Source: Candidatus Poribacteria bacterium (GTDB taxonomy: Bacteria; Poribacteria; WGA-4E; WGA-3G). Taken from it: a DNA stretch of 64,000 bases. The position numbers and the translations under genes are program-made. The stretch lies in the NCBI GenBank assembly GCA_965205025.1, contig CBDBFU010000020.1:64001-128000 (forward strand). Reading direction: 5' to 3'. The notes under the pieces were generated by a model, which had not been told where the DNA came from, made no database searches, and saw only the letters and a program-made list of their open reading frames with translations. Shown piece by piece: positions 11,535 through 50,687 of this stretch. Position 1 is the first letter of the stretch; each line of letters starts with the position of its first letter.

Positions 11535-11625
11535 TACTCCTCAAATTAGCAATATTATCCTCCATTACTTCTATTTGATTCTGAGAAATGGAATATTTAA
11601 CATTGGCTCGAATTAAGTTGTCTTT

Positions 11626-11712
11626 TAAACAAAAAACCCGGTAAACAGGGTGCTCTTTAGGCACTACGAATGCATATAATGCACGTAGGAGAGCGGTTAG
11701 TTTACCAGGGAA
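11626..11712 (-). terminator. Attenuator/terminator hairpin in his leader
   Basis: Minus strand CCCTGGTAAAC...GTTTACCGGG stem followed by TTTTTTGTTT. Confidence 0.65.
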
Positions 11713-11782
11713 TCTTTTGCAAGTATTCTTACAATTAGTCCACTATGATGTATGTTTACTTCATCATTCTAATCCGCCCAAC

Positions 11783-11827
11783 TCAGGAATGGACAGAATG
11801 ATGATGTATATAGAGTATTATTTTCAT
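11783..11827 (-). CDS. His operon leader peptide MKIILYIHHHSVHS
   Basis: ATG AAA ATA ATA CTC TAT ATA CAT CAT CAT TCT GTC CAT TCC TGA; 4 His codons; located between promoter and terminator upstream of hisZ-hisG-hisS. Confidence 0.8.
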   Translation of the reverse strand: MKIILYIHHHSVHS

Positions 11828-11865
11828 AGATATATTAAATGTCAGAAACTAATTTTACCATATCA

Positions 11866-11894
11866 ATTATACATGGTTAATTTGTTTAAGTCAA
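11866..11894 (-). promoter_or_regulatory. Sigma70 promoter of his operon
   Basis: Minus strand TTGACT-N17-TATAAT. Confidence 0.75.
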
Positions 11895-11954
11895 AAATTA
11901 ATTAGGATTTGACTTATTTCTATAATCATGCCAAATTAATTCTATATTTTAGAA

Positions 11955-12611: not shown

Positions 12612-12698
12612 TTTGCGTAAATTCTCGGTTGTATGTTATAATTACGCTAAAGTTTAACCCGAATTTCACAAGATTCATCATTTGAAAACGTAATTGAC

Positions 12699-12727
12699 TT
12701 GACAACGTTTATACTTATGGATAAACT
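12699..12727 (+). promoter_or_regulatory. Sigma70-like promoter of the cohesin/spondin gene
   Basis: TTGACA-N17-TAAACT about 215 nt upstream of the start. Confidence 0.5.
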
Positions 12728-12942
12728 TGTTATTAAATACCTTAGTCAGGTGATGATAATTTAGTACGTAATATATCTAAGTCACGTCATGCGTATTGCC
12801 TATGACAGATATATGTAGCGCGTTAAGAAGAATCGTGAATTGAGTCTCTCAGTGTTACCTCTCCTCTTAAGGTTAAGAGACTTAGACTTGTATCGTATAG
12901 GTAGAGTTAATTACAAAGTTAATGATTTTTAAGGAGTTTTAT

Positions 12943-15402
12943 ATGAATATTCAGCTTAACAATAGGAAAATACTGTTTTCCCTATTGGCTGTTATAATGT
13001 GTTTTGGAATTACAGCGTATAGTTACGGCGCAGCTACCGTATCTATCGACCCCGCCACTCAAGAATCCCCTGCTGTTGGCGAAGAACTTACCATTAATAT
13101 TAATATTGCTGGTGGTGAAGGCGTAGCCGGTGGCCAAGCAACGGTTAATTATGATAATACTGCCCTTGAATATGTCTCCGCTGCAAAAGGTGATTATCTT
13201 CCCGGTGATCCAGCTGCAGGAACGTTCTTTCCAGTAATTAAACCTGGTGATTCGAACATAACAGTAGGTGGAACTTCAATTGGAGCAGGAACAGCAAGCG
13301 GAGATGGTACACTTGCTACTGTTACATTTAAGGTAATTGAAGTTAAGGCATCAGCTATTACTTTGTCAGGTGTAGTTATTTCTGATGCTGCAGCAAATGA
13401 ATTGGAAGTCACAACTGCAGATGGTGAAATAACAGTTCCTGCACCCACCGATGATGGTACTACAGATGATGGCACCACCGATGATGGTACTACAGATGAT
13501 GGTACTACAGATGACGGTACTACAGATGACGGTACCACCGATGATGGTACTACAGATGACGGCACTACAGATGACGGTACCACCGATGATGGCACCACAG
13601 ATGATACGATGGTCGACGATACTGATGATACGATGGTCGACGATACCGATGATACGATGGTCGATGATACTGATGATACGATGGTCGACGATACCGATGA
13701 TACGATGGTCGACGATACTGATGATACGATGGTCGACGATACCGATGATACGATGGTCGACGATACCGATGATACGATGGTCGTTCCCGATCCTCAAGTT
13801 TTTAAGATTACCCTCACAAACCTCACATCTGGTGAACCAGGAGTAGGTGGTCAAATCTTCTCACCTCCCATCTTCGCATCACATCTTGCAGGAGCAAGAA
13901 TATATACCCTTGGTGAACCTGCATCTGAAGCAATGGTCTTACTTGCTGAAAATGGTGACCGATCAGGACTCGCTGCTATAGCAACCGCTGCTGGTGCTAC
14001 ACCAGTTATGCCAGACGGATTTGTCTTTCCTGGTACATCTGTTACTGTGATGGTCTCCGCAGATGCTGTAAATTCTGCTCTTTCGTTTGCAACTATGTTG
14101 GTTTCAACAAATGATGCTTTTATTGGAGCAACTAATGTCGCTCTTTATGATGAAGCAGGTATGCCTATTACAACGACTATTCCTCTGATGTCTTATGATG
14201 CAGGTAGTGAACAGAATACTGAACGTGCATCTGATATACCCGGACCAATCGGTTTAGGACCAGACGAAGATCCTGAAGGTACTAATGAACGTGTTCCTAC
14301 AGAAGGTGGCGTCATCACACCTCATGCCGGTATTTTGGGTGTTGGAGAAGTCGCAGAATCATTTGGTTGGACTGAACCCACAGCAACACTTATGATCGAA
14401 CCTTACGTCCCAGAACCGGAACCAGAACCAGAACCCGTCATACCAACTTACGACGTTATGCTTGAAGCTGGTTTGAATATGATTTCTGTTCCTTTAATGC
14501 CAACCGAACCTTATACAGCTAAATCTCTTGCTGAATTAGTTGGTGCTACAGTTGTTATCAAATTAGATCCAGTATCACAAAGTTTCGTCGGTTATGTCGT
14601 CGTTGAAGAAGATGATGGCTTCGGAATTGAAGGTGGACAAGGTTATATCGTTAATAAACTTGAAGCGGGAATGGTACAATTTTCAGGTAATGCATGGTCT
14701 AATCCTTCAACAGAAATGATGGATGATGAGACTATGATGGATGATGAGACTATGATGGATGATACAGCCGCTGCACCATCACTTTCAATTTTGAAAAATG
14801 CTTGGGCATTTATTGTCTCAAGTGAATTGAAAGAGATGCAACCTGGAATGTCTTATATAGTCGTTGCTAAGAATCTTCGTACTGGAACTGTTGCTACAGA
14901 AAAAGTTACAGGTGAAGATGGAAGTGTCTCTGCTGTTTGGGCAGACTTGAATCGTAAGAGTGTTGTTGAAGCTGGCGACAAAATTGAGATCTCTCTACTT
15001 GATCAAGAGGGAACAATTGTATCCGGTCCTTTCCAACGTACAGTCCAAACTTCAGATATTCATAATGCCTATCTCACAGTACAATTACGGGTTGGTGATG
15101 TCCGTCCACAAGAAACTATTCTTGGACAAAACTTCCCTAATCCATTCAACCCAGAAACTTGGATTCCATATCAATTGAGTAAGGATTCTACTGTATCAAT
15201 CTCAATATTTAATGTTTCTGGACACATCGTACGTTCAATTGACTTAGGTCATCAGTCAGTAGGTTCATACATGCAACCTTCGACTGCAGCTTATTGGGAT
15301 GGCAAAAACGACGCTGGCGAGGCTGTTTCGAGTGGTATTTACTTCTATACACTCCAAACAAATAACTTCTCAGCTACCCGTCGTATGGTTATCTTGAAGT
15401 AA
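12943..15402 (+). CDS. Secreted multidomain protein: cohesin, acidic repeat linker, spondin_N-like domain, C-terminal FlgD-Ig/secretion-tail-like domain
   Basis: Signal peptide; cohesin-like YDNTALEY..GDGTLATVTFKV; spondin-like FSPP..H, LAENGD, TMLVSTNDAFIG, YDAGSEQNTE; QNFPNPFNPETWIPYQL..YWDGKN..SGIYFYTL; AAGGAG RBS before ATG 12943. Confidence 0.8.
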   Translation: MNIQLNNRKILFSLLAVIMCFGITAYSYGAATVSIDPATQESPAVGEELTININIAGGEGVAGGQATVNYDNTALEYVSAAKGDYLPGDPAAGTFFPVIKPGDSNITVGGTSIGAGTASGDGTLATVTFKVIEVKASAITLSGVVISDAAANELEVTTADGEITVPAPTDDGTTDDGTTDDGTTDDGTTDDGTTDDGTTDDGTTDDGTTDDGTTDDGTTDDTMVDDTDDTMVDDTDDTMVDDTDDTMVDDTDDTMVDDTDDTMVDDTDDTMVDDTDDTMVVPDPQVFKITLTNLTSGEPGVGGQIFSPPIFASHLAGARIYTLGEPASEAMVLLAENGDRSGLAAIATAAGATPVMPDGFVFPGTSVTVMVSADAVNSALSFATMLVSTNDAFIGATNVALYDEAGMPITTTIPLMSYDAGSEQNTERASDIPGPIGLGPDEDPEGTNERVPTEGGVITPHAGILGVGEVAESFGWTEPTATLMIEPYVPEPEPEPEPVIPTYDVMLEAGLNMISVPLMPTEPYTAKSLAELVGATVVIKLDPVSQSFVGYVVVEEDDGFGIEGGQGYIVNKLEAGMVQFSGNAWSNPSTEMMDDETMMDDETMMDDTAAAPSLSILKNAWAFIVSSELKEMQPGMSYIVVAKNLRTGTVATEKVTGEDGSVSAVWADLNRKSVVEAGDKIEISLLDQEGTIVSGPFQRTVQTSDIHNAYLTVQLRVGDVRPQETILGQNFPNPFNPETWIPYQLSKDSTVSISIFNVSGHIVRSIDLGHQSVGSYMQPSTAAYWDGKNDAGEAVSSGIYFYTLQTNNFSATRRMVILK
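13447..13782 (+). repeat. Intragenic tandem repeats: 15-bp (TDDGT)n, then 24-bp (TMVDDTDD)n
   Basis: Directly visible in DNA and protein. Confidence 0.95.
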
Positions 15403-36109: not shown

Positions 36110-36793
36110 ATGGGAACCGGCAGCGAAGAAACGCTACGTCTGCTTATGAAGAAGTATTATGAACCGATCCGTGCTTCCGTTACCAAGATCATAGGAAACC
36201 GTGAAGATGCCGATGAAATTACGAGTGAAACCTTCTTCAAAGCCTTCAATAAGAGAAATACGATTAAGGACCCTGAGAGACTCGTGGGGTGGTTATACAC
36301 CACAGCGAGAAATGCTGCGTTTGACCGAATAAGAGACAGACAACAAAAGGTTAATCAGATGCATGAATTCGTCTCTCTTTATAATGTGGATGGTGAAAGA
36401 GAAGCATCCATGCTTGCAGCACAGCAGGCACAACAGACTGAGGCAGAACATTATCTGTTGAAACGTCTCCTGCGGCTACTACCAGAAAAGGACCTTCAGG
36501 TTGTTGAATACCTATTAGATGACCTAAAGCCGAAGCAGATTGCAGAACTGATAGGTTCCACTGCCGAGGCTGTTCAGAAAAGATGGGAGCGGATACTCAA
36601 ATGGTTACGTCTGATTGCGCAACAATTAGATGAACTAATCAGCGATCTTCCATCTCAAGAACAGAAGATTATGGAACGGTATTTAGACAATCAACCTCTC
36701 AAAGAGATAAGTGAAAAATTAGGTATGTCTCCGAATGACATTGAAGTGCGCGTGAAACGTGTGATAAAGCGGTGGAAGAAGACCGTAACGTAA
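36110..36793 (+). CDS. ECF sigma factor with duplicated sigma4 domain
   Basis: sigma2 DADEITSETFFKA..GWLYTTARNAAFD; two sigma4/HTH units LPEKD..KQIAELIG and LPSQE..KEISEKLG; SD-led ATG at 36080 is cut by in-frame TAA 36095. Confidence 0.85.
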   Translation: MGTGSEETLRLLMKKYYEPIRASVTKIIGNREDADEITSETFFKAFNKRNTIKDPERLVGWLYTTARNAAFDRIRDRQQKVNQMHEFVSLYNVDGEREASMLAAQQAQQTEAEHYLLKRLLRLLPEKDLQVVEYLLDDLKPKQIAELIGSTAEAVQKRWERILKWLRLIAQQLDELISDLPSQEQKIMERYLDNQPLKEISEKLGMSPNDIEVRVKRVIKRWKKTVT

Positions 36794-37241
36794 AACGCCA
36801 CTACAAAGTTAAGCGTGAGAGTAATTGATTTATTTTATTTTGATAAATTACGGGAGAAATGATACAATTTGCAAAATACTACCATGAGAATGAGAGAAAA
36901 CAAACACGATTCGGATGGTATTTCCAAATTGCATTTTTTCCTTCAACTAACACTGACTTCCAACACGGAAATTAGAAAGGAGTAAAGGAAATGACAGATG
37001 TTTTACAATACTTTCACATATAATCTGAGTTTTAGTTGAATGGTTGCAGAGTGAATAAAATTGATTGCTCAGAGAAGTTCCGAGATTTCAGGATTAAAAT
37101 AACTTCAGGTTTTTACTGAAGCCATTTTTAATTTACGGTCTTCTGACCCCATGTCATCTCGTCAATTTTAACTTTACGTTACTGCATGTTTGCACGCTGA
37201 TCGCGTGTAGATAAAACTATAACTCTATAAAGGAGAATATT

Positions 37242-38048
37242 ATGTGGTATAAAATGAGCTGGGGACTTGGTGTTCTCGCAGTTGTTCTGCTTATAGGTTT
37301 CTCTATGCTTATTATTCCCACCCAGATGGAACTTAAGCAGATGCGTGAGGAAGCAAAAGCAAATGAGAAAATATCACAAGAGAAAAGAGACCATGAACAT
37401 TATCAGGCTGATAATGAAACACACGCTGGAATCTCGGATTCAGAACAGGGTACGGAAACAACTGTGAAACCGGACAATCCAGTTAATATAAATGAGAATG
37501 ACAACGTGACTGAAACTACGGAAACGGTTGGTGTTGGCACCGGTGCTAATGGCGAAGTTTTTCGATTTAAAGATGGTATCTATAAAGGTATGACCTATCC
37601 TGAAGCACTGAAGTTTTGGCAAAAACGTGTAAGTGATGCAGAAAAAGAATATAATGATGTCCTTGGTACATACAACGGCATAAAAGAGGCTTTATTCAAC
37701 GCAAGTCATTCAGGAATGGCGATTTTAGTCGGAAGTCTTAGAAAATTACCCTCTAATGTGTATGAGCAAGCAATGGATCGGTTTTTTAAAAATGATCCGA
37801 ACGGTCGTGAAAAATTTGAAGCATATATGAACGAAGTTGAGAAACATGCTTATTCAGGATCCTTAGCGGATCAGGTATCAAGGTTTGAGAATGAAAAAGA
37901 GTATCGGCAAATGCTTAGAGTTTCATGGGATGAATTACGCCCTGAAAGGGATAGGCTTCGGGCTGAATATATGAAAATTTATCTTGAAACGCACCCACTT
38001 AGAGATAAGGAGGCACTTAGAGAAATAAGGAGGCACTTAGAGAAATAA
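37242..38048 (+). CDS. Membrane-anchored hypothetical protein A (copy 1)
   Basis: AAGGAG RBS, N-terminal TM helix, polar linker, helical domain; near identical to 39167-39952. Confidence 0.8.
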   Translation: MWYKMSWGLGVLAVVLLIGFSMLIIPTQMELKQMREEAKANEKISQEKRDHEHYQADNETHAGISDSEQGTETTVKPDNPVNINENDNVTETTETVGVGTGANGEVFRFKDGIYKGMTYPEALKFWQKRVSDAEKEYNDVLGTYNGIKEALFNASHSGMAILVGSLRKLPSNVYEQAMDRFFKNDPNGREKFEAYMNEVEKHAYSGSLADQVSRFENEKEYRQMLRVSWDELRPERDRLRAEYMKIYLETHPLRDKEALREIRRHLEK

Positions 38049-38331: not shown

Positions 38332-38628
38332 ATGCAATTACCTCCTTACCTTCGGAAAATCCTTGTCTGTGTCCTGCTTTTATACCTCATGTTTCTCACT
38401 TTTGTGATACGTAACCAAGGTGTAGAACATCTCTCCGCTGGACACTTTACAGAAAACGATGCTTTCCTTTATTAGTGGATGGCGGAGAAAATTGTAGAAA
38501 ACAGCATCCTCCCGCCCCGTGATACACATCGCTGGCTTCCCCTCGTCAGATAACGCTCAACTGTTACCACTCTATTCTTATGCCATTGCCTATATCCATA
38601 ACACATTGGCGTGGATCTTTCCTGCACT
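38332..38628 (+). pseudogene. 5' remnant of STT3-like oligosaccharyltransferase
   Basis: ATGCAATTACCTCCTTACCTTCG... highly similar to 47663 onward; in-frame stops; truncated by repeat elements. Confidence 0.85.
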
Positions 38629-38756
38629 ATAAGCGTCAATTTAAGCATTAGACTCTTGGTAGGAAGGGATTCCAATCCCCGATCTTTTCCTCTTCTGTGG
38701 GCGGGGAATGCCTAAATGGCATTCATACCGTTGATTCCTGGATTCCAATCCCCGAT
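38629..38756. repeat. REP-like/MITE-end cluster
   Basis: GCGTCAATTTAAG, GTAGGAAGGGATTCCAATCCC, GGGGAATGCCTAAATGGCATTC. Confidence 0.75.
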
Positions 38757-38948
38757 CTTAACTACAAACGTATCGTGATACGAAGAACATACCTTCCAGT
38801 GCGTTAATGCCAACAACTTTATACACCCAAAGACAATTTAGTATTCTTCGATAGGTTATATATGTATATAAAGGCAAATTCTTATGTTCCTTAAGGTCAT
38901 TTATAAAGTTAATAATACAATGATCTTTATGGCTTAAAATTAATTTTA

Positions 38949-38975
38949 TGTCGGAATTCTTCCCAATTCTACGTC
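38949..38975 (+). promoter_or_regulatory. Putative ECF promoter, copy 2
   Basis: TGTCGGA-N16-CGTC. Confidence 0.6.
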
Positions 38976-39005
38976 AGGTTAAATAAAGGCAGTGATGTTT
39001 TCACT

Positions 39006-39087
39006 TGCCGAGGCTGTTAAGAAAAGATAGGAACGGATACTTAAGTGGTTACGTCCGATTGCGCAACAATTAGATGAACTAATCAGT
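39006..39087 (+). pseudogene. Internal fragment of the ECF sigma gene
   Basis: Matches about 36561-36642 (GCCGAGGCTGTT..GCGCAACAATTAGATGAACTAATCAG). Confidence 0.8.
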
Positions 39088-39166: not shown

Positions 39167-39952
39167 ATGTGGTATAAAATGAGTTGGGGACTTGGTGTTC
39201 TCGCAGTTGTTCTGCTTATAGGTTTCTCTATGCTTGTTATTCCCGCACAGATGGAACTTAAGGAGATGCGTGAGGAAGCAAAAGCAAATGAGAAAATGTT
39301 ACAAGGTGAAAGAAAACATGACCATGAACATTATCAGGCTGATAATGAAACACACGTTGGAATCTCGGATTTAAAACAGGTTACGGAAACAGCTGTGAAA
39401 CCGGACAATCCAGTTAATATAAATGAGAATGACAACGTGACTGAAACTACGGAAACGGTTGGTGTTGGCACCGGTGCTAATGGCGAAGTTTTTCGATTTA
39501 AAGATGGTATCTATAAAGGTATGACCTATCCTGAAGCACTGAAGTTTTGGCAAAAACGTGTAAGTGATGCAGAGAAAGAATATAATGATGTCCTTGGTAC
39601 ATACAACGGCATAAAAGAGGCTTTATTCAACGCAAGTCATTCAGGAATGGCGATTTTAGTCGGAAGTCTTAGAAAATTACCCTCTAATGTGTATGAGCAA
39701 GCAATGGATCGGTTTTTTAAAAATGATCCGAACGGTCGTGAAAAATTTGAAGCATATATGAACGAAGTTGAGAAACATGCTTATTCAGGATCCTTAGCGG
39801 ATCAGGTATCAAGGTTTGAGAATGAGAAAGAGTATCGGCAAATGCTTAGAGTTTCATGGGATGAATTACGCCCTGAAAGGGATAGGCTTCGGGCTGAATA
39901 TATGAAAATTTATCTTGAAGCGCACCCGCTTAGAGGAATAAGGAGGAATTAA
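39167..39952 (+). CDS. Membrane-anchored hypothetical protein A (copy 2)
   Basis: RBS, N-terminal TM; duplicate of 37242-38048. Confidence 0.8.
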   Translation: MWYKMSWGLGVLAVVLLIGFSMLVIPAQMELKEMREEAKANEKMLQGERKHDHEHYQADNETHVGISDLKQVTETAVKPDNPVNINENDNVTETTETVGVGTGANGEVFRFKDGIYKGMTYPEALKFWQKRVSDAEKEYNDVLGTYNGIKEALFNASHSGMAILVGSLRKLPSNVYEQAMDRFFKNDPNGREKFEAYMNEVEKHAYSGSLADQVSRFENEKEYRQMLRVSWDELRPERDRLRAEYMKIYLEAHPLRGIRRN

Positions 39953-39955: not shown

Positions 39956-40492
39956 TTGAAATTATTGTTTAAAATTAAGAAGGTAACTGCTTTTTTTGTT
40001 GTTAGTATATTTATTTTAACGCATATCTGTTTCTTATCTTCTGCTATAGCAGATTGCGGTATAGACACTTATAAGCAATTAGTAGAGGCTACAAACGAAC
40101 TAAGTAAGTTGGAAAACACAGATCTTCCAATCGCTCAAAATAATTTGGACCTAGCAGAGGCCGCCTTTCTTGACTTTACAGAGCGAATAAAATACTATTA
40201 TATTGTTGGTATATTAGGCGGCGGTATAATTAGTGGTCCGGGGGGCATCGTACTTGGAGCAGCGGGTGCAACAATTATGACTGGTATGGAAGCAACTCAG
40301 CTCATGGAAAATATTAATAATGCCCGGGACAGGCTTAAGGAAGTGAATGCTCAGATAAAGACGCTTAAGAAACTATTAAAAACATTTGATGAAACTCATG
40401 GTTTCGATGATACCATTAACAACCCTGATTTCTATGACGATGATGGTGGTGCTAATAATGACGGCGGTTGTAATGACGGCGCCTATGCTTAA
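39956..40492 (+). CDS. Secreted helical protein B1 with Gly-rich hydrophobic core and acidic GGC tail
   Basis: AAGGAGG RBS, TTG start, signal peptide ending AIA-DC, coiled coils flanking GILGGGIISGPGGIVLGAAG, tail DDDGGANNDGGCNDGAYA. Confidence 0.78.
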   Translation: MKLLFKIKKVTAFFVVSIFILTHICFLSSAIADCGIDTYKQLVEATNELSKLENTDLPIAQNNLDLAEAAFLDFTERIKYYYIVGILGGGIISGPGGIVLGAAGATIMTGMEATQLMENINNARDRLKEVNAQIKTLKKLLKTFDETHGFDDTINNPDFYDDDGGANNDGGCNDGAYA

Positions 40493-40501
40493 TTTTGATA
40501 T

Positions 40502-40541
40502 TGTGGTTCCTACACTTTTTGTGCAGGAACCACATTTTTTT
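40502..40541 (+). terminator. Intrinsic terminator between B1 and the OST gene
   Basis: TGTGGTTCCT..AGGAACCACA followed by a T run. Confidence 0.75.
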
Positions 40542-40549
40542 GTGAAAGA

Positions 40550-43013
40550 ATGAAAGATAAAATAACCATCTTATTATTAGTTATTATTTTATTTTTGACT
40601 TTTTGGATTCGTGTTCAGGGCGTTGAACGGATTCCAGCGGGTCAATTTACGGAGAACGATGCGTATACGTATTATTGGCAATCGGGTATTATAGCAGAGC
40701 AGGGTAGGTTACCAGTCCGTGATATGTCTCGTTGGTTGCCAGTGGGCCGTGATAATGGTCAGTTGTTTTCGTTTTATGCCTATGCGTTAGGGTATTTGTC
40801 CAAACTTTTTCCGTGGGTGTCGCGATATACCATTCAGATTTATCTTCCTGTCTTTTGCTTCACTTTGATTGTAGGGCTTATTTTTGTGTTCTTTTGGCGT
40901 ACTGACGGTGAGTTATTTACGTTGATTGTAGGGGTGGTGCTTGCGACATTGCCTGGAAGTATTAGTCGGAGTGCAGTCGGGTTTGGTGATAGGGATACGT
41001 GGTGTTATCTGTTTGGTGCTCTTGCTATTTTTGGATATCTATTTAAAGAGCGTATGGAAGTAGGTATTCATAGAACAATTGTGAATTGTTTGTGTGGGTT
41101 GGTAGTATTTATTGGCGGTCTTTCTTGGGAGGCGTTTGGTGTATTTGTTTTAGTTATTGTGTCTTTGGAAATATGGAAGTTTTGTCGTGAGGAAGGAATT
41201 GAGAGTTATAGTGAGTACTTAATATGGGTGCTAATGTTTGTTCCTGGATTACTGCTTATCAGTCCAGCATATAGAAACGGTTACGGTTTTTCTGCACATG
41301 TGGGCGCGTTATTGATATTTCCTGTTTTGACGGTCTTAGTGATACGTGTTATTCGCCAGTTGTGTTTTAAATATGTAAAGGTTGTTCGTTTACATAAGAA
41401 AAAACTTGTTTGGGGTCTAACTTTATTTTCGTTTTTGCTTGGGATAGGGTATATCGTTCTTCAATCAGGAAGTTTTGCATCGACAGTTTTTTCTTTTCAA
41501 GAGAGTCGTTTGATGCAAAATGTAGGTGAGTTACAGGATCCGCATTTTAGGTATTGGTATTGGCGGTACGGATCTATCTATATTTTAGGGAGTATTGGTT
41601 TTATTGTTTGTTCCGTTATTCTATGGGGTCGTTTTGGTGTTGTACTCGCGGCATCTGTTTTATTATTTGTGTTGACGACATTCTTTCGGTGGCCTGTAAG
41701 TGATGTTATTGGTGAGAATATTTGTGATGTTCTATTCATGGTTTCATTGTGTTTAACAGGAATTAGTGTCGGTATTGCTTCTTTGCGAGAATCACAAAAA
41801 AAAGAGGTATATGTTGTATTGGCGATGTTGATGTGGTTTGTAATATGGGTATCATTTGCGCGTGGTGGCAAACGGTTTGACTTCTTTATAGGTTTGCCAC
41901 TTGCGTATGGAACCGCATGGCTTTTGTATTCATCACCCGTGTATGTTATAGAGAAGTTAAAAGAAATTGGAGTGATTTATAGGGAACGTCTTAATGGTAT
42001 GCACGTAGCTGTTGTATTTTCTATTGTCGTATTAGTGCCAGTGTTATTTGTAGATGTATTGGGAGGGCATGTTAATCGTTCTGTTCATGCTTCGGCAGAG
42101 ATGAAAAAACCTATTCCTGGTGTGAATGATGTTGCAGAGGCGTTTGAATGGATCAAAGAGAATTTGAATGAAAATGTTGTGATGGCAGCAAATTGGCCAC
42201 ATGGAACGCAGCTGAATGTGCTTGGGAATGTAAAAACGGTTGTAGATTCGGATCATTATCTGCCACATTGGATACATTTGTACTATAGACATGTGTTTTG
42301 TGCTCAGGATCCGTATGAAGCGTTAAGTTTTTTGAAAACACATAATGCAACCCATTTGATGATGACCGAGTGGGAGGTGATTTCTCGTTCACATGTATAT
42401 TCTTATATTGGTAGTAATGCGGATAATGATAGACGATTTCGGTTACACAAGTTTGTTCGGGTTGATGGACCTATCGGTGAACCCTATCAGTTAGAACCTG
42501 AATCTGATCGAATGCCAATAGCATTTATTGATTTTGTTTCCAAAACAGGAACACGTGAACCTGGAACACACGGACCTGTTGAAATTGGCAAGCAACAGAA
42601 GTTAGGATTTACGATTCACTTGAAAACAGATGAGAACTTAACAGGGGACCTGGCTATTACGTTTGGAAAAGAGTCTATCCGTACAGTGAGTATGGGCAGT
42701 AGTGGGTTAGTGTTTTACTTTGATCGTAATGGTGTCCTAAAACAGGGGTATTTATTGTCCTCTCGTGGGTGGGAAAGTCTGGCAATAGAACTATTTTTGA
42801 GAAATAAAGCATGAGGAGTTTTTTATTCCGATGTATCCTATGGAGAACTTTAAAACAAGTGATGTAAAGATATGGAAAATTAATTATCCTGACTCTATTA
42901 AAGCGGATCCGAAATATCTTGTGACTGCTCCTGTGAATTCTGAAACAGATGACAATTCTCATGTTCCAAATGACCATTCCCATGATATAGATGAGCATTC
43001 GCATGAACACTAA
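40550..43013 (+). CDS. STT3/AglB/PglB-like oligosaccharyltransferase (GT-C) with atypical NWPHG motif; one frameshift near the 3' end
   Basis: Multi-TM N-half with ENDAY, GFGDRD (DxD), NVGE, KRFDFF; soluble C-domain MAANWPHGTQLNVLGNVKTVVD; removing one A at 42806-42808 joins it to 42831-43013 (HEEFFIPMYP..VKIWKINYP). Confidence 0.78.
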
Positions 43014-43722
43014 TAAGAATTTTATATCAATAGTCATGCCTTGTTTGAATGAGGAGGAGACACTTGGTATTTGTATTGAAAAAACACAATCTACTTTGAA
43101 AATGTTAGAATTTTTCGGAGAAGTAATTGTATCTGATAACGGTTCCACCGATGCCTCTGTAGAAATTGCTGAACGTCTCGGTGCGCGCGTAGTGCATCAA
43201 CCTACACGCGGCTACGGTGCCGCCTATCTTGCAGGCTTCGCCGCCGCACAAGGACAATACATCGTCATGGGAGACTCCGATGATACATACGATTTCACAG
43301 ATTTAGAAAGGTTTATCACCCCGCTTCAAAACGGTTACGATCTTGTCATCGGAAATCGGTTCAAAGGGACAATCCTTCCAGGTGCAATGCCATGGGCAAG
43401 ACGCTACATCGGCAATCCCGTTTTATCTGGTATGCTGCGTGTCCTTTTTGGTACATATATTTCAGATTCACACTGTGGGATGCGATCATTCACTGCCGAG
43501 GCATATAAACGGATGGATTTGAAAACAACAGGTATGGAATTCGCCTCTGAAATGGTCATCAAGGCAATACAGACCGAGTTGAAAATACTTGAAATTCCCA
43601 TCACCTATCATCCCCGTGGCGGCGAGTCTAAACTCAATGCCATACGGGACGCCCTCCGACATCTACGCTTTATGTTCCAATATAAACTGACATCTGCCAA
43701 AAAACATGCACGCGACAAATGA
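43003..43722 (+). CDS. GT2 glycosyltransferase, polyprenol/dolichol-phosphate sugar synthase (DPM1-like)
   Basis: ISIVMPCLNEE, DNGSTD, GYGAA, MGDSD, DSHCGMR, YHPRGGESKL. Confidence 0.88.
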   Translation: MNTNKNFISIVMPCLNEEETLGICIEKTQSTLKMLEFFGEVIVSDNGSTDASVEIAERLGARVVHQPTRGYGAAYLAGFAAAQGQYIVMGDSDDTYDFTDLERFITPLQNGYDLVIGNRFKGTILPGAMPWARRYIGNPVLSGMLRVLFGTYISDSHCGMRSFTAEAYKRMDLKTTGMEFASEMVIKAIQTELKILEIPITYHPRGGESKLNAIRDALRHLRFMFQYKLTSAKKHARDK

Positions 43723-44281
43723 ACTGCCAAAAATACCGAAGAAACTGATAGATAGACTTCTTGAATACTTACGATTTAAGACGGCAAAAAGGTATATCTA
43801 CAGAGACAGTCGGGTTTTAGACGTTGGCACTGGAGATGGCACATTCCTACAATATCTCAATGGACACATAAGTTCAGGAACCGGCATTGATCCACTTTTC
43901 ACACACGCTATACATTTTGAGAATTACACTCTCTGCCCAGGTGTGTTCCCGCACGATTTTTATACCGAAGAACAATTTGATGTTATCACACTCCTTGCTG
44001 TCGTAGAACATATCCCTGAAACCGAACTACAGCATGTAGCAGAAGCCTGCTATAATTATCTCACGCCAAAAGGACGTATCATCATCACTGTCCCACACCC
44101 CTTTGCTGATAAGATACTCAATATATTGAAGGCTCTTAGAGTGATAAATGGACTATCGCTTGAACAACATTATGGGTTCAATCCCGAACAATTGACCGAT
44201 ATTTTCAACAAGTGGAAACTGATCAAAAAAGAAAGGTGGGAGCTCGGATTGAATTATCTGTTTATCTTTGAAAAATATTAG
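43706..44281 (+). CDS. Class I SAM-dependent methyltransferase
   Basis: VLDVGTGDG, FDVITLLAVVEH, LTPKGRIIITVP. Confidence 0.9.
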   Translation: MHATNELPKIPKKLIDRLLEYLRFKTAKRYIYRDSRVLDVGTGDGTFLQYLNGHISSGTGIDPLFTHAIHFENYTLCPGVFPHDFYTEEQFDVITLLAVVEHIPETELQHVAEACYNYLTPKGRIIITVPHPFADKILNILKALRVINGLSLEQHYGFNPEQLTDIFNKWKLIKKERWELGLNYLFIFEKY

Positions 44282-44327
44282 ACAGAATCAATTCAACGAT
44301 AATAAAAACGATCCGACTGATTAACAA

Positions 44328-44585
44328 TAGGTGTCAATTTAGTACGGATATATTTGATACAAGACAATTGGTCTACCCACTTTCAAGCGAACTTATTGGA
44401 AGCACTTCTCCAGCAAACAGTGTCGTTTGTGAAGCCCGGGGAATGCCATAAGGCATTCATACCGTTGATTTCTTGATTTCTTGATTCCTTTAGATTCCGA
44501 TCCTCAATTCTTACATTTCTTCTGTATGAGGGATTCCAATCCCCGATCTTCTCCTCTTCTGTGGGAGGGGATTCCAATCCCCGAT
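44328..44585. repeat. REP-like/MITE-end cluster
   Basis: TAGGTGTCAATTTAG, CCCGGGGAATGCCATAAGGCATTCATACCG, GGGATTCCAATCCCCGA x2. Confidence 0.75.
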
Positions 44586-44669
44586 CTTAACTACAAACGT
44601 ATCGTGATACGAAGAACATACCTTCCAGTGCGTTAATGCCAACAACTTTATACACCCAAAGACAATTTA

Positions 44670-45575
44670 TAGTAAACTTTAGAATTAATGATACATGTTT
44701 ATAACTTCATCAATGGTTATATCAGCATTGTATTCTCTGAGACGTTTGATATTCGCAAAGTCGTGTTCAATCGGGTTGTAGTCCGGTGAATAAGGTGGTA
44801 AAAACAATACCTCTGCTCCCGATGCTTCTATCAACTCACGCGTCCGAAGCGTCTTGTGGATCTTCGCATTATCAAGAACAACCACGTCTGAGACAGACAG
44901 CCGTGGACATAAATAGGCTTCAAGCCACGCATTGAAACACGCAGAATCGCAGCTTCCATCAAACAAACAAGGTGCCGTAAAAGTCGAACCGATACGCGCT
45001 GCGACCAGCGTCGTTGTTCGTGTTCTTGTGCCTGAGATCAAACCTAAGACACATTCACCTTTCGGGGCATAGCCATGACGCCTATAACTTTCAGCACGAA
45101 AAACCGCATTCATCAACATAAACTATCTTTTTACCAGCGGCGTGTTTCTCGGTGAGTGTCTGACGGTAGCCCCTACGTTTCTCATCGCACCGCTCCTTAT
45201 ATCCGATTGTTTTTTTTTCGTGTGATGCCGAGTTTCCGCAACCCATAGGCTATAGAAGACTCTGAAACACCGAAATGTGAGGCGCGTTCGTTTTGCGTCA
45301 AGTCTGGGAAATCAGCGACATGTTTTTTCAGTGCTGCCTCGTCAAGCACTCTCATGCTTTTGGGCCCCGGTTTTTGGGTCGAAAGCGGGTCTTCAGCGGC
45401 TAACCATCTATAAATCGTTGAACGATTCAGAGAAAAACGACGGGCAGCTTCGGCTTTTTTCCCGCCAGCTTCAATAAAATCTAAAACGCGTTTGCGTAAA
45501 TCTGTTGAATATGCCATAATAGACACATTCTACTACAAAATACAAAAAATGTCTCTTTAATTCTGATAGTCACTA
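44670..45575 (-). mobile_element. IS630 family element (906 bp) inserted in cassette leader copy 3; transposase frameshifted
   Basis: TA duplication at 44668-69 and 45576-77 versus empty site GACAATTTAGTATTC in copies 1 and 2; imperfect IRs TAGT..AGAATTAA; MAYSTDLRKRV HTH, VDE, LDNA, LPPYSPDYNPIE; frameshifts at A9 (45210-45218) and T5 (45099-45103). Confidence 0.92.
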
Positions 45576-45685
45576 TAGTATTCTTCGGTAGGTTATATAT
45601 GTATTAAAGGTAAATTCCAATGTTCCTTAAGGCCATTTATAAAGTTAATAATACAATGATTTTTATGGCTTAAAAATTAATTTTA

Positions 45686-45712
45686 TGTCGGAATTCTTCC
45701 CAAATCTACGTC
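45686..45712 (+). promoter_or_regulatory. Putative ECF promoter, copy 3
   Basis: TGTCGGA-N16-CGTC. Confidence 0.6.
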
Positions 45713-45743
45713 ATGCTCAATAAAGGCAGTGATGTTTTCACTT

Positions 45744-45836
45744 AAGCAGATAATTGAAAAATTAGGTATCTCCCCGCATAACATTGAAGTGTGCGTGAGA
45801 CGTGTGATAAAGCGGTGGAAGAAAACCGTAACGTAA
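45744..45836 (+). pseudogene. 3' fragment of the ECF sigma gene
   Basis: Matches about 36702-36793; the following ~190 bp also match 36794-36985. Confidence 0.82.
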
Positions 45837-46030
45837 AACGCCGCTACAAAAGTTAAGCGTGAGAGTAATTGATTTATTTTATTTTGATAAATTACGGGAG
45901 AAATGATACAATTTGCAAAATACTACCGCATGAATGAGGGTAAACAAGCACGATTCGGATAGTATTTCCAAATTGCATTTTCTCCTTCTACTCACATTGA
46001 CTTCCGACACGGAAGTTTGAAAGGAAGGAA

Positions 46031-46444
46031 ATGAAAATGACAAATACGATCAGGTTGCTAAAACTAAACACGAATTTGCTCAGCATGATAAGTCTCATTG
46101 TGCTGCTTACAATCATATTCCCAACAGTTTATTCGATTGCAATGCATGATTGCGACGAAGCAAGAGAGGATCTTGAGGCAGCTCATAGGACACTTCAAAA
46201 AGAAAGATCAGATTTACACATTGCGCAATTTTTGTATTCCGCTGCATTGCTAACCAGAAATCCAATTCTTATACATGTAGCGAGGGCTAACTTGGATAGA
46301 GCAGAAGAACAATTTGAGAAAGCGAAAAAAGATCATTTATTAAAATGGTTAGCTTACTTTAGTTGTATATACGACGATCATAGTGATGATGAAGGTGGAG
46401 CAGATGCCGGCGGTTGTGATAGTGGTGGGGATACTCCTGCCTAA
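46031..46444 (+). CDS. Secreted helical protein B2 with acidic GGC tail
   Basis: RBS AAGGAAGG; signal peptide ending SIA-MHDC; DLHIAQ..NLDRAE resembles B1; tail DDEGGADAGGCDSGGDTPA. Confidence 0.78.
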   Translation: MKMTNTIRLLKLNTNLLSMISLIVLLTIIFPTVYSIAMHDCDEAREDLEAAHRTLQKERSDLHIAQFLYSAALLTRNPILIHVARANLDRAEEQFEKAKKDHLLKWLAYFSCIYDDHSDDEGGADAGGCDSGGDTPA

Positions 46445-46488
46445 AAGTTGTGTTGATTGGAAACCACTAAAGTCCGTTTTATCTTTGT

Positions 46489-46520
46489 GATATGTTCTCT
46501 TTTTTGAAAGAGAACATATC
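46489..46520 (+). terminator. Hairpin after B2
   Basis: GATATGTTCTCT..AGAGAACATATC inverted repeat. Confidence 0.6.
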
Positions 46521-46552
46521 AAATTTATACAAAATTTAGGAGATTAATCCTG

Positions 46553-47251
46553 ATGAAAACTCAACGAAACGTAACAGGACATATTGTGATAGGAACAATT
46601 TGCCTTGCAGTATTGGGTTGTGTAACATGGTACTTTGTTTTTTATCGATCTCAGTTAAACGTTGATCCAATAAAAAAGTATAACACTATTACCTTTACAC
46701 AAAAAGATTCTGTTGAAACATTTGAAAAATCTGTATCATCCGCATTGGATACTGCAGATACAGAAGGTATCAGGGATACTTTGAGTAAAGCTGAAACTGC
46801 TGTCAGGTCAAATTCCGAAAACTCCAGTAATGTAGTCTTTCCGGTTGATGAGAACCGAAAGATAAACTCCGAACAAGATGCACAGAAAAGCACAGCAGAC
46901 TCTACAAAAGATGCAGAAATTATGAGGATCCTGATGGAAGCAGAGAAGCTTCAAAAGTTGACAGATGACACCCTGGCACGACATAAACAATTCATGGAAA
47001 TTCTAGACACGGTACCTATCTCCCAACACCAAGGGAAATTACCTGAGAATGTAGTCGAAAATCTACTTAATCAACTTGTGCCCAATTTGGTTGAGGAATT
47101 GAACACACTTTCTGCAACAGAGCAACGCAAACTTATTACTCAGTTGCGCCCATTGATGAAAACAATGGTTGGCGCGCATACCCAGGAGTCCGATTCAGTC
47201 GATGTTCTCTTAAAAATGCTTCATGCACATGGGTTTGAACCGAAGTTTTGA
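46553..47251 (+). CDS. Membrane-anchored hypothetical protein (A-like architecture)
   Basis: AGGAG RBS, N-terminal TM, Ser/Thr-rich linker, helical C-domain. Confidence 0.75.
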   Translation: MKTQRNVTGHIVIGTICLAVLGCVTWYFVFYRSQLNVDPIKKYNTITFTQKDSVETFEKSVSSALDTADTEGIRDTLSKAETAVRSNSENSSNVVFPVDENRKINSEQDAQKSTADSTKDAEIMRILMEAEKLQKLTDDTLARHKQFMEILDTVPISQHQGKLPENVVENLLNQLVPNLVEELNTLSATEQRKLITQLRPLMKTMVGAHTQESDSVDVLLKMLHAHGFEPKF

Positions 47252-47268
47252 GAATGGAGAGTAACTTT

Positions 47269-47532
47269 ATGAAGGACAATTTCTTCGTATATGGCGTTGG
47301 CATCCTTGCAATCGTTGGTGTCCTCGTTTGCTTTATCGGATACGCAACAAATACGGCGTCTATGTACACACCAAAGCAGACAACTGCTATTACAACAACC
47401 GCTGGAAAGAAGAAAAACTGCAAATGCTGTTCAAAGCGGTTGGAACGCGTCAAAAAAGCTAATAAAGATTTACTTGAACGCAACCCTGTCTTGAAAAAAG
47501 CCTTAACTGCAATCGAACACGAGACACAATAG
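47269..47532 (+). CDS. Small membrane-anchored protein with CKCC motif
   Basis: GGAG RBS before MKDNFF, TM helix, KKKNCKCCSKR. Confidence 0.6.
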   Translation: MKDNFFVYGVGILAIVGVLVCFIGYATNTASMYTPKQTTAITTTAGKKKNCKCCSKRLERVKKANKDLLERNPVLKKALTAIEHETQ

Positions 47533-47662: not shown

Positions 47663-50081
47663 ATGCAATTACCTCCTTATCTTCGCAAAATCCTTGTCTG
47701 TGTCCTACTTTTATACCTCATGTTTCTCACTTTTGGGATACGTATCCAAGGTGTAGAATATCTCCCAGCAGGACAATTTACAGAAAACGATGCTTTCCTT
47801 TATCAGTGGATGGCGGAGATAATTGCAGAAAACGGCACCCTTCCGCCACGCGATACACATCGCTGGCTTCCCCTCGGCAGAGATAACGGTCAATTGTTAC
47901 CACTCTATTCTTATGCCATCGCCTATACGCATAAAACGTTGGCATGGAATCTTCCCTACACTCACACGGTATCACATTCAACTCTACATCACCGCTATCT
48001 GTTTTACATTAGGGCTTGGCGTGCTTATGCCTTTTGCTTATCCGCACCCACGGGCTGCTATTTGCGTCCATCGTTAGCGCTGCTGTTGGCAACGTTACCG
48101 GGAAGTGTAGAGCGAAGTGCTGCTGGTTTTGGCGATCGCGATGCATGGTGCTGGATGTTTGGCGTACTCGCTGTCGCTGTTTACCTGTGGAAAGAACAAA
48201 TTCCATTAAACCCTTCTGTCATGAGGGAAAGAGGGGTTCCTGAAAAGGAAGGTAAGGGGATTAGTAATTGGCTTAGATATTTCGCTACCGCGCCTTGCTA
48301 GGATTTATCGTCTTCTTGGGTGGACTCTCATGGGAAAGTTTCGGGCTTTTTGTTTTAATTATTCTCTGTACAGAACTCTGGAAATTTTGCACTACAGAGA
48401 CAGAATCTCACCTAAAAGAGTACCTTATATGGATAGCTCATGTTCGTTCCGGGACTCTATCTCATCAGTCCTGCCTATCGGAGCGGATATACTTATGCAA
48501 CGCATCTGGCTGCGCTAACACTTGCCCCACCAATTGCAGTTTTTATCATGCGTGGACTGAGATACCTACTGCTTGAAGTATTACCCATCGCTACGTCTGC
48601 ATGCACGGAAACTCGCGGGAGGACTCACCTTGTTCGGCATCGGAATAGGAATTGGTTATATTCTGCTGCAATCCGGTACATTCGAGAATACCGCGTTCAT
48701 CTTCCGAGAAAACCGACTCATGAAGGACATGACAGAACTTGCTGATCCAAATTTCGGATATTGGCCCAGCCCGGTACGGCACCGTCTTTATGTTAGGTAG
48801 TCTCGGCTTGATACTTGGGAGTCTTGTACCTCTGGAAGCAGCGCGGGATTCCTGTTGCCATAGCGCTTTCACTTTTCACCGCAACAACATTTTTCCGATG
48901 GCCCCTGAGTGAGTTGGTTGGAGGAGGAAGCTGCGATATACTCTTTCTCGTTTCACTGGGACTCACGGCTATCACTCTCGCAATTGCATGTTTGCGAAAA
49001 GAAACAGCGAAAAATGAATTGGTAACGGTTATAATGGTTTGTATGGTTTGTTTTGTGGGTGGCACTTTCACGTGGTGCAAAACGTTATGATTTCTTCATA
49101 GGTGTACCTCTTGCATACGGCACCGCATGGCTCTTGTGGCAGTTGCCGGCAACACTCACACAACAATTCAAAAAACCGCAGTGGATACCCGTTACAATTG
49201 CAATTGCCGTTTTAATACCTGTCCTGTTTTGGACTCCTTTCGGTGGGCATGCAAACAGAGCTGTTCCTTCCGCCGCTTACTGGCGAAAACCGCTTCCCGG
49301 AACAGGAGATATCGCGCAAGCACTCAACTGGATAAAAACATCGCTTCCACAAGATACAGTCATGGCAGCAAACTGGAGTTATGGCAGCAGACTTAACGTC
49401 TTCGGTGGTGTCAAAACCATCACCGATCAGGATACGTTTCTCCCACACTGGATACACCTCTATTACCGACATGTCTACTGTGCACAAGACGTACGAGAAG
49501 CACTTGAATTCCTCAAAACCCACGGTGCTACGCATCTCATGCTCAGAGAGTGGGGATTGATTGACCGTGCCTTTACCTATTCTTATATCGGCAGCGATGA
49601 AATCGGTGATAAAAGATTCGGATTTACCCGCCTTGTTCAACTTGGATACAAACATCTCTCAAAGATAGAACAAACGCCTTTTCTGTACGTTGAAGAACCT
49701 GATATCGCATCACCACCTGATTTCATAACAGCACGTTTGAAAGAGGGAGGGATTGCGCGGCTCCCGTATGTGGCGTTCAAAGGTAGCAAACGCCATATCC
49801 ACAAAACTGCACTTGACGAAAATCCATACGGAAACATCATCCTTTATTACGATGAAGATGGTGCACTTGAAAAGGCGTACCACATTTCTAATCTCGGCTG
49901 GCAAAGCCTTGCTGTCCGTCTCTATTTTCTCGAGGACTTCTCCAACATCTTTGCCCCTATCTATCCTACAAATGGTGAAGATACCGCTCCTCTTAAGATA
50001 TGGGAAATTCGTTATCCACCTGACATAAAAACCGATGACAAATATCTTGCTATGGAGCCAAACGAACAAGCCAAAGAATAG
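47663..50081 (+). pseudogene. Second STT3-like oligosaccharyltransferase, multiply frameshifted
   Basis: Consecutive fragments in different frames collinear with 40550 gene: ENDAF, GFGDRD, GGLSWE, DMTELADP, KRYDFF, MAANWSYG, LPHWIHLYYRHV, LKIWEIRYP. Confidence 0.85.
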
Positions 50082-50687
50082 ATGGCAAACTCTATTACCC
50101 GATTTCTCAAAAACAGAAAGTTTCAACAAGGTGATCAGTATCCCAGAAAACCCCTGGATTCCTTCCTTGAATATCTGCGATTTACGAAAGTCGAACCGTA
50201 CATTCCGATAGGTGCGCGTCTTTTGGACGTTGGGACTGGAGACGGAAACTTTTTACGTTATCTCAATGATAGTCTACATACCGGTATAGGAATTGACTCA
50301 CATCTCACACAAACTGTAGAATTTGGGTCGTGTTGTCTTATGCCTGGATATTTTCCAAATGACTTCATTCGAGATGAAACCTTTGATGTTATCACGATGC
50401 TTGCAGTCGTAGAACACATCCCGATGCATGTTCTCCCCTCGGTTGCAGATGCTTGCTGGAAATATCTAAACCCAGAAGGACGACTCATTATTACAGTGCA
50501 ACACCCGCGTGTTGAGAAACTTCTTGACTTGCTAAAAGCACTAAAGATTGTTGAAGGATTCTCAATACATGAGCATTATGGATTCAATCCAGAGTGTCTA
50601 CCGGAGATTTTCACCCGATGGAAACTCGTGAAAAGGGAACGTTGGGGATTTGGAAATAATAATCTATTCATATTTGAAAAACCCTAA
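50082..50687 (+). CDS. Class I SAM-dependent methyltransferase (paralogue of 43706)
   Basis: LLDVGTGDG, FDVITMLAVVEH, HYGFNPE shared with 43706 gene. Confidence 0.9.
   Translation: MANSITRFLKNRKFQQGDQYPRKPLDSFLEYLRFTKVEPYIPIGARLLDVGTGDGNFLRYLNDSLHTGIGIDSHLTQTVEFGSCCLMPGYFPNDFIRDETFDVITMLAVVEHIPMHVLPSVADACWKYLNPEGRLIITVQHPRVEKLLDLLKALKIVEGFSIHEHYGFNPECLPEIFTRWKLVKRERWGFGNNNLFIFEKP

Follow-up and report, generated by a model that had tools for sequence, protein, structure and literature searches.

How do two small proteins with different cores come to share an almost constant C-terminal end, and what might that end be for? The question is raised by B1 and B2, two genes in a 64,000-nucleotide stretch (hereafter the window; contig CBDBFU010000020.1, assembly GCA_965205025.1) of the genome of a Candidatus Poribacteria bacterium, which amounts to 5.66 Mb in 33 contigs. 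Both proteins end in an acidic tail containing Gly and Cys, and both genes lie upstream of a gene related to the oligosaccharyltransferase STT3. It is suggested here, at somewhat less than an even chance, that the tail is a non-canonical acceptor, or a recognition or docking segment, for the STT3-like enzyme. The whole-genome scan covers this one genome, and patterns and profiles were run in 40 others. The two genes, with positions counted in the window, are:

39956-40492, + strand: B1, an open reading frame (ORF) of 178 amino acids with a TTG start
46031-46444, + strand: B2, an ORF of 137 amino acids

In B1, a signal peptide and an Asp-Cys pair are followed by helices around a Gly-rich hydrophobic segment (residues ~78-110) and by the acidic Gly/Cys tail, YDDDGGANNDGGCNDG. 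B2 is composed of a signal peptide, a helical hairpin, and a disordered acidic Gly/Cys tail, YDDHSDDEGGADAGGCDSG. The elements that the initial annotation had listed as common to both proteins (a signal peptide followed by DC, DLxIAQ, NLDxAE, and the tail) can all be read in the translations: the hydrophobic N-terminus ends with ..AIA before DC in B1 and with ..SIA before MHDC in B2, and DLPIAQ and NLDLAE of B1 correspond to DLHIAQ and NLDRAE of B2. The cores do differ, as was also stated; however, they are not wholly unrelated, since the first ~50 residues align. BLASTP of B1 against B2 returns two local matches, one in the N-terminal 50 amino acids (E 2e-4) and one in the tail (E 0.002).

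The shared elements are rare in the genome. Among 52,656 stop-to-stop ORFs of at least 40 amino acids from a six-frame scan of the whole genome, the tail expression GGA..GGC[DN]xG matches only B1 and B2, and DL.IAQ and NLD.AE are found in three ORFs each, two of which are B1 and B2. When the 20-residue window richest in G, D, N, and C is scored in the last 40 residues of 4611 non-overlapping genome ORFs of at least 80 amino acids, only seven ORFs reach 12, with B1 at 16 and B2 at 14.

Modelling of B2 by AlphaFold2 (AF2) with a family alignment gives a helical hairpin at residues 40-115 (pLDDT 89-96) and a disordered tail (pLDDT ~40), and in this model Cys41 and Cys112 are symmetric about the hairpin turn. 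For B1, the single-sequence AF2 model is poor (pLDDT 48) and the best ESM Atlas score of 0.77 is to unnamed clusters only, so that neither is usable; B1 matches no Pfam or NCBIfam family, and a set of 5.8 billion proteins holds no relative of B1 except itself. The picture that is consistent with these data is that B1 and B2 would be small helical proteins exported through Sec, belonging to a fast-evolving, Poribacteria-restricted group, in which B2 would form a disulfide-stapled helical hairpin and B1 may add a Gly-rich hydrophobic hairpin. Lipoproteins end their signal peptide with the lipobox L-[AS]-[GA]-C; no such motif is found in either protein, in which Asp precedes the Cys (..AIADC in B1, ..AMHDC in B2), and this assignment was rejected.

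The 5.8-billion-protein set contains eleven members of the B2 family, B1 and B2 among them; every named one is a hypothetical protein of Poribacteria. A hidden Markov model (HMM) built without B2 and without the tails finds B2 among the 4611 ORFs with an E-value of 9e-21 and B1 with 0.87. Membership of B1 is therefore rejected on the HMM score, and B1 is tied to the family only by the pairwise BLASTP match in its N-terminal 50 amino acids and by the shared architecture. Pairwise comparison of 13 members gives a mean identity of 0.61 for the last 12 residues, 0.50 for the signal region, and 0.23 for the core. When B2 is compared with an orthologue of 62% identity, seven synonymous and six nonsynonymous changes are counted in the tail, and seven synonymous and two conservative nonsynonymous ones in the YDDH..GGADAGGC stretch within it.

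These values bear on an improbable account in which B1 and B2 have no dedicated function and are merely diverged paralogues of a tandem duplication, their tail being a low-complexity remnant kept by descent and composition. The surroundings look the part: the genes stand in an array with decayed copies (B1' and fragments of enzyme genes), two anchored proteins (A1 and A2) that are 94% identical, and repeated spacers. The alignment of the N-terminal 50 residues of B1 and B2 also fits, as do relatives whose tails are simple repeats with copy numbers that change between genomes. A mere remnant, however, would hardly be the best conserved part of the B2 family next to a core of 23% identity, nor would an excess of synonymous over nonsynonymous changes (7 to 2) be expected in YDDH..GGADAGGC. 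Similar tails also occur on nine core families. Recent gene conversion between the tails was ruled out because the longest identical DNA run between them is 9 nt, which also speaks against the remnant. The disordered acidic tail thus appears as the selected part of the proteins, and it may be the acceptor or the recognition segment for a periplasm-facing GT-C enzyme.

The relation between tails and enzyme genes was examined in a set of 104 distinct full-length STT3-like genes with ~4 kb upstream of each. Enzyme ORFs shorter than 600 amino acids and loci L001-L012 (shorter flanks; duplicates of later loci) were left out, enzyme genes identical over the last 300 amino acids were counted once, and ORFs were discarded if they were shorter than 60 amino acids or had an overlap above 30% with a longer ORF; two tail expressions were then applied to the last 35 residues of each ORF. 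Tails were found in 16 of 319 same-strand upstream ORFs, in 16 of the 104 loci, against 1/224 downstream ORFs, 0/257 ORFs on the opposite strand, and 5/4611 genome ORFs, two of which are B1 and B2. Tail-positive loci concentrate near OST1, the enzyme gene that follows B1: 13 of 37 where the enzyme is at least 46% identical to OST1, 3 of 30 at 42-46%, and none of 37 below 42%. Once the tails are cut off, BLAST divides the tail ORFs into nine core families. The claim of a constant tail on diverging or unrelated cores beside STT3-like genes is therefore upheld by 16/104 loci against a background of 5/4611 and by the nine core families.

Examples of tails among the relatives include GGCDSGGCDSGGC, (GGND)9, (GNNDD[TS])n, and SGSCDSSGSC. 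The type of tail tracks the enzyme subtype across core families, in that enzymes with NWSYG go with GGCxSGGC and those with NWGYGIQ go with (GNNDD)n. Only three N-x-S/T sequons occur in 19 tails.

Orthologous proteins of 230-253 amino acids in three genomes differ in the number of GGCDS copies, with 3 (L013/L154, G013), at least 6 (L165/L176, G020), or ~1 (L015, G005); poly-Asp/Pro comes next, and the end, ..EYYK..SID, is conserved. In G020, the gene downstream of the repeat protein keeps only an enzyme-like N-terminus. In the source genome, a 113-amino-acid secreted protein ending in ..AEGGCGCGG is encoded at a contig end (G000:C24:67054-67395), next to an identical IS630 copy, a porin-like gene, and WD40 genes; in L034, a homologue is encoded upstream of an STT3-like gene, at a distance of 2.3-2.7 kb.

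The two enzyme genes of the window are:

40550-43013, + strand: OST1, an STT3/AglB/PglB-like GT-C enzyme of 754 amino acids, from family profile matches
47663-50081, + strand: OST2, the other STT3-like gene, split into five frames or more, from ORF pieces with stops inside the match

On sequence grounds, the OST1 family is a true relative of STT3, as had been proposed for the cassette enzyme. A profile of 22 family members against the PDB matches human STT3A (2e-15), AglB (4e-10), and PglB (1.5e-7), as well as STT3B and yeast STT3; the STT3A match covers positions 10-388 and 406-623, corresponding to the membrane and C-terminal parts. The layout is shared as well, with a multi-pass part at the N-terminus and a globular one at the C-terminus. 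OST1 by itself has no Pfam STT3 match at E-values up to 10, a weak match to the C-terminal domain of yeast STT3, and a match to TIGR04154 of 2.3e-13 with 49 bits, against a cutoff of 450; many of its relatives carry a precomputed PF02516 match. The catalytic acidic residues of STT3, AglB, and PglB are kept: D37 and D147-R-D149 in 105/106 members each and E327 in 106/106, where the Asp of external loop 1, D-x-D, and the Glu of [T/S]-x-E (SVSE/TIXE) align with EFDPY, GSYDNE, and SVSEHQ of STT3A.

Unlike in these enzymes, the WWDYG motif is reduced to xWxYG. According to an excerpt of PMC8342417, WWDYG forms together with DK/MI the pocket for the Ser/Thr of the sequon. Among the 106 members, 42 have N, 27 have H, and 9 have D at position 1; where the Asp would stand, S (24 members), G (22), D (18), and E (12) occur, and WWDY is found in three; the counterpart is NWPHG in OST1 and NWSYG in OST2. 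Of the further motifs of these enzymes, DK or MI and DGGK/DNxT, DK/MI was not located, and a conserved D-x-D-[HTQ]-[YF] (D566 in 102/106) aligns near the VDNNTW stretch of STT3A. Since WWDYG is degenerate, the family probably does not read N-x-S/T, and the candidate acceptors beside OST genes are also nearly devoid of this sequon, which sets them apart from the substrates of STT3, AglB, and PglB. Canonical N-glycosylation of the tail was therefore rejected as improbable.

The family is further distinguished by being multi-copy and by its distribution. Of 24 genomes sampled within the genus, 20 contain it, and a genome may have as many as 14 matches; among 16 genomes from other genera of the order, it is present in one. 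All named relatives are from Candidatus Poribacteria metagenome-assembled genomes and the rest are labelled 'uncultured bacterium' (74 loci kept of 427 relatives). A scan of metagenome contigs with OST1 gave no relative, and nothing relevant was found in a full-text literature search linking Poribacteria with oligosaccharyltransferase, STT3, or N-glycosylation. In other loci of the family (e.g. L031, L032, L084, L085, L093, L098, L108), the enzyme gene is preceded by proteins without tails, namely WD40-repeat proteins, a ~340-amino-acid protein ending in ..GWQYAFRL, or a MacB/FtsX-like permease. Evidently, the STT3-like family occupies several different gene contexts.

Neither enzyme gene is intact in this assembly. 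The OST1 ORF extends over 40550-42814 and its frame stops 15 nt past the A-run 42806-42808, where a 1-nt shift moves the conserved last ~60 codons into a different frame (42831-43013). The 60-amino-acid ORF at 42831-43013 carries the nearly invariant C-terminal motif of the family, ..W.I.YP..I...KYL.., and a His-rich end, and an 828-amino-acid homologue with 62% identity (P0014) reads straight through the position of the break. Contigs of one sequencing run (X2) break at 42807 and a contig of another (X1) has two unlocated gaps across OST1; the break may thus come from the assembly, though a real frameshift is also conceivable. OST2 is probably a pseudogene, although some of its breaks may be assembly or strain differences, since public contigs show 1-nt indels at several places. 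The initial annotation, which spoke of enzyme genes downstream of both hairpins, is to be corrected on this point, as the frame of OST2 is broken.

Two kinds of accessory enzymes accompany the STT3-like genes:

42991-43722, + strand: GT2 glycosyltransferase, from Pfam Glycos_transf_2 (2.7e-29)
43706-44281, + strand: MT1, an S-adenosylmethionine (SAM)-dependent methyltransferase, from Pfam Methyltransf_23 (5e-14)
50082-50687, + strand: MT2, an SAM-dependent methyltransferase, from Pfam Methyltransf_23 (4e-13), 56% identical to MT1

The GT2 protein is nearest to polyprenyl/dolichyl-phosphate hexose synthases (NCBIfam AglJ at 5.7e-44 and Dol-P hexose transferase at 1.7e-30, neither of which reaches its curated cutoff), which fits a lipid-phosphate-sugar donor. 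In the archaeal Agl pathway, AglJ is a lipid-phosphate hexose synthase, AglB is the transferase, and a methyltransferase takes part. Cassette 1 likewise unites an AglJ-like GT2, an AglB/STT3-like GT-C, and an SAM methyltransferase; however, the host is a bacterium, the cassette has no further glycan-assembly genes, and the scores are below the family cutoffs. A possible mechanism can be described as follows. The AglJ-like GT2 may supply a lipid-phosphate-hexose donor, and the GT-C enzyme, keeping the catalytic machinery of an oligosaccharyltransferase without the WWD pocket by which the Ser/Thr of N-x-S/T is read, would recognise another Gly-rich acidic context, roughly G-G-[C/N]-[D/N]; the methyltransferase may act on the sugar or on the product. 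When OST1 was modelled in complex with B1 residues 130-178, the score was 0.00, which carries no weight either way.

Each small gene is followed by a stem-loop:

40502-40534, + strand: stem-loop with a U7 run, terminator- or attenuator-like, between B1 and OST1
46488-46521, + strand: 15-bp AT-rich stem-loop after B2 without a U run, from folding of the intergenic stretch

The first has a folding energy of -20.4 kcal/mol and a z-score of -5.6, with 0/200 shuffles as stable, and the second sits in a 108-nt intergenic fold with a z-score of -4.1. Both were described earlier as lying upstream of the enzyme genes; both are indeed more stable than shuffles, whereas the one after B2 precedes C and D, the two genes following B2, and not the enzyme gene. 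A hairpin after the precursor-like gene does recur: with mononucleotide shuffles and a cut-off of z < -2, a strong hairpin is found 3' of 14/20 tail ORFs, against 14/123 other ORFs in the same loci. Such a hairpin may allow the substrate gene to be expressed above the enzyme genes.

Hairpins of this kind had suggested a cluster for peptides that are made on the ribosome and modified after translation (RiPPs). In this scheme, which is weak and appears unlikely, B1 and B2 would be precursors of secreted modified toxins, either glycocin- or RiPP-like or pore-forming, with the core as the warhead and the constant ends recognised by the enzymes. Besides the hairpin 3' of the small gene, the hypervariable core between two conserved ends would suit a toxin precursor, and B1 and several family members carry hydrophobic Gly/Ala-rich hairpins. 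The transferases of glycocins are soluble GT2 enzymes, unlike the periplasm-facing membrane GT-C of the cassettes, and the GT2 protein of the window resembles lipid-phosphate hexose synthases (AglJ-like) and not a glycocin S-glycosyltransferase. The N-termini of B1 and B2 resemble Sec signal peptides and not leader peptides, and none of the 16 neighbouring proteins scanned between 36110 and 52221 is a peptidase (C39 included), an ABC exporter, an immunity protein, or a RiPP enzyme, which together speak against a RiPP cluster. Foldseek with the B2 model against the PDB gives only generic long helical hairpins (E >=0.045), a result that also offers a toxin no support. Glycocins are S- or O-glycosylated bacteriocins. 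According to an excerpt of PMC5890784, glycocin F is helical, is stapled by two disulfides, and bears GlcNAc S-linked to its flexible C-terminal Cys43. The B2 model, a helical hairpin with symmetric Cys residues as a possible staple and a floppy Cys-bearing tail, recalls it; nevertheless, the mature proteins are 100-145 amino acids long, two- to three-fold larger than the 43 amino acids of glycocin F. That the Cys is the modified residue was a guess, since Cys is lacking in some related tails and Asn in others.

The tail was also compared with C-terminal sorting tags. PEP-CTERM, GlyGly-CTERM, MYXO-CTERM, and LPXTG tags consist of a motif, a hydrophobic helix, and a basic cluster, are paired with a sortase-like protease, and in some cases contain Gly-Cys. 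Like the B1/B2-type tails, they are short, conserved, and placed at the C-terminus of secreted proteins that are otherwise unrelated. The tails of B1 and B2, in contrast, are acidic and Gly-rich without a hydrophobic stretch, no such protease was found among the 16 proteins scanned nearby, and a sorting tag was rejected.

Several observations weigh against the tail as acceptor or docking segment of the STT3-like enzyme. By the tail expressions, 88 of the 104 enzyme loci have no tail ORF. No residue is common to all tails, and a Cys in the last 6 residues, which is also found in 26/122 opposite-strand ORFs (21%), had to be dropped as a sole tail descriptor. Related loci are not independent, and inherited synteny can mimic both linkage and the match of subtypes. 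OST2 is broken, and OST1 is frame-shifted near its 3' end in this assembly. The profile search of the 40 related genomes located 11 B2-family places outside the source genome (not counting two short fragments, G018:C16:7092 and G002:C29:162350); only three lie beside an intact enzyme gene, two lie beside one that is split by an insertion sequence (IS) or reduced to a remnant, and six have no enzyme gene in the stretch fetched. The association of the tail pattern with STT3-like genes, which the initial annotation had put forward for checking, thus stands as an enrichment upstream of enzyme genes, whereas the reverse relation is loose. Since six of the 11 places are without an enzyme gene, the small gene appears to persist without an enzyme in cis, and the enzyme-free cassettes include ones that keep the sigma gene, B, C, D, and even methyltransferase remnants.

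These same places lend some credit to a further alternative, doubtful though less so than the others, in which the tail acts without glycosylation, through a disulfide, by binding a thiol, a metal, or Ca2+, or as a docking end for A, C, or D; the STT3-like genes would then be mere neighbours, with envelope functions sharing one extracytoplasmic function (ECF) sigma factor. The sigma-B-C-D module remains with its tail intact and the enzyme gone in G014:C137, G018:C16, and two G002:C29 cassettes. Tails of the B2 family hold a fixed Cys pair, GGC-x-S-G-[GS]-C, besides the two Cys residues that may staple the hairpin. Relatives with three to at least six copies of GGCDS followed by poly-Asp, or with (GGND)9, resemble ion-binding repeats. 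Acidic low-complexity tails also occur far from STT3-like genes in the source genome, at C14:153945-154814, C14:2343-2885, and C26:74244-75197, which encode secreted or lipoprotein-like proteins with extreme tails of (NG)n, D/H/G-rich, and poly-Asp/His composition. What this alternative leaves unexplained is why tail ORFs of unrelated cores cluster upstream of one enzyme family and why the tail type follows the enzyme subtype. Moreover, B1 and B2 keep one tail Cys each, so that the Cys-pair site is not conserved in them, and the enzyme activity could be supplied in trans by paralogues encoded at other places of the genome.

B-family genes are also present in two genomes, G026 and G038, in which no match to the STT3-like enzyme was found, and there the B proteins have no GGC tail, as the proposed relation of tail and enzyme would have it. 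The one in G026, which belongs to another genus (L182, G026:C1:2803000-2817000, 6821-13416), is a B1-like protein with a signal, a Cys, a helix, a Gly-rich hydrophobic segment, a helix with ..DCL.., and an acidic DGGND tail without Cys; BLASTP of B1 against this architecturally similar protein is not significant. Its gene lies 200 nt upstream of a gene for a 560-amino-acid PMT_2-type GT-C, followed by three GT2 genes. No relative of the protein turned up in 28 other genomes of the same family, which leaves the association with PMT_2 as a single case.

The genes discussed above belong to three tandem cassette units on the + strand, at 36.1-50.7 kb, behind an ECF sigma gene. Unit 0 is decayed and retains A1, a B1-like fragment, and an enzyme-gene fragment; unit 1 has the order A2, B1, hairpin, OST1, GT2, methyltransferase; unit 2 has the order B2, hairpin, C, D, OST2 (broken, at least five frame pieces), methyltransferase. 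The remaining features of the array are:

36110-36793, + strand: ECF-type sigma-70 factor at the head of the array, from Pfam Sigma70_r2 and Sigma70_r4_2 and NCBIfam TIGR02937 (4e-30)
36805-36981 (177 nt), + strand: promoter-bearing intergenic block, copy 1 of direct repeat D3
37242-38048, + strand: A1, an N-terminally anchored protein (ORF), a duplicate of A2 with 94% amino acid identity
38063-38248, + strand: B1', a decayed B1-like gene fragment, from tblastn with B1 residues 4-63 (60% amino acid identity)
38350-38617, + strand: STT3-like gene fragment of the N-terminal ~90 codons, from tblastn with OST1 residues 1-90
39167-39952, + strand: A2, an N-terminally anchored protein (ORF), with its stop 4 nt before the B1 start
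44650-45607, - strand: IS630-family insertion between units, from Pfam DDE_3 and HTH_Tnp_IS630
46553-47251, + strand: C (ORF), an N-anchored protein accompanying B2-type genes
47248-47532, + strand: D (ORF), a small protein with one transmembrane segment accompanying B2-type genes

Sigma genes homologous to the one at the head of the array also precede B2-type genes in other genomes. The second copy of the intergenic block lies at 45849-46025, just upstream of B2, and is 92% identical to the first; identical promoter-like sites, TTGATA-17-TACAAT with TG, are present in both (36840-36868 and 45884-45912; consensus match only). B1' is 85% identical to B1 at the nucleotide level (repeat D4), and its frame has no start, a stop just upstream, and an early end. 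The A copies (94% at the amino acid level) are far more alike than B1 and B1' (60%). No Pfam or NCBIfam family was matched by A1, A2, C, or D. C-like proteins form the largest companion family upstream of enzyme genes, with 13 members. In D-type proteins, a single N-terminal transmembrane helix precedes a basic C-terminal part in which K-K-K-N-C-K-C-C is conserved, and since these proteins always stand alongside C-type proteins behind an ECF sigma gene, a role of D in sigma control is conceivable.

The IS630 element is polymorphic, with contigs of several runs joining across 44650-45607 and 44667-45576 (TA..TA ends); its transposase frame is split in the window at 45099, where all contigs are one base short. 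Short repeated intergenic elements occur at 44232-44669 and 38665-39006. Over 44232-44592, contig depth reaches 10^3 to 10^4 in 4/4 runs compared, with many loose ends at 44435/44437 and 44470/44471, and this segment looks like a very high-copy short repeat resembling a miniature inverted-repeat transposable element or a repetitive extragenic palindromic element. The spacer 38740-38840 is 100% identical to 44569-44669, and 38869-38947 is 90% identical to 45605-45683; this spacer is therefore an empty-site copy of the IS630 target.

Bacterial glycosylation of the STT3 type is known mainly from PglB systems with a fixed sequon. The boldest form of the proposal, which should be regarded as improbable, is that an expanded STT3-derived family has given up the sequon pocket and glycosylates the disordered, acidic and Gly-rich tails of dedicated, hypervariable secreted proteins of the helical-hairpin type; the sugar may be S-linked to Cys, or be attached to Asn or Asp in a G-G-[C/N]-D context. 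If true, glycosylation in the periplasm would here be directed by a tag, with subtypes of enzyme and tail matched to each other, and the enzyme would be the first among oligosaccharyltransferase relatives to use an acceptor other than the sequon, possibly a thiol. A multi-copy, lineage-specific offshoot of STT3 without the sequon pocket, its copies standing next to candidate acceptors, would then widen the scope of this enzyme class, and the tail would offer a short portable tag for glyco-engineering. For Poribacteria, variable glycosylated surface or secreted proteins would in that case be a part of the dealings between the sponge symbiont and its host.

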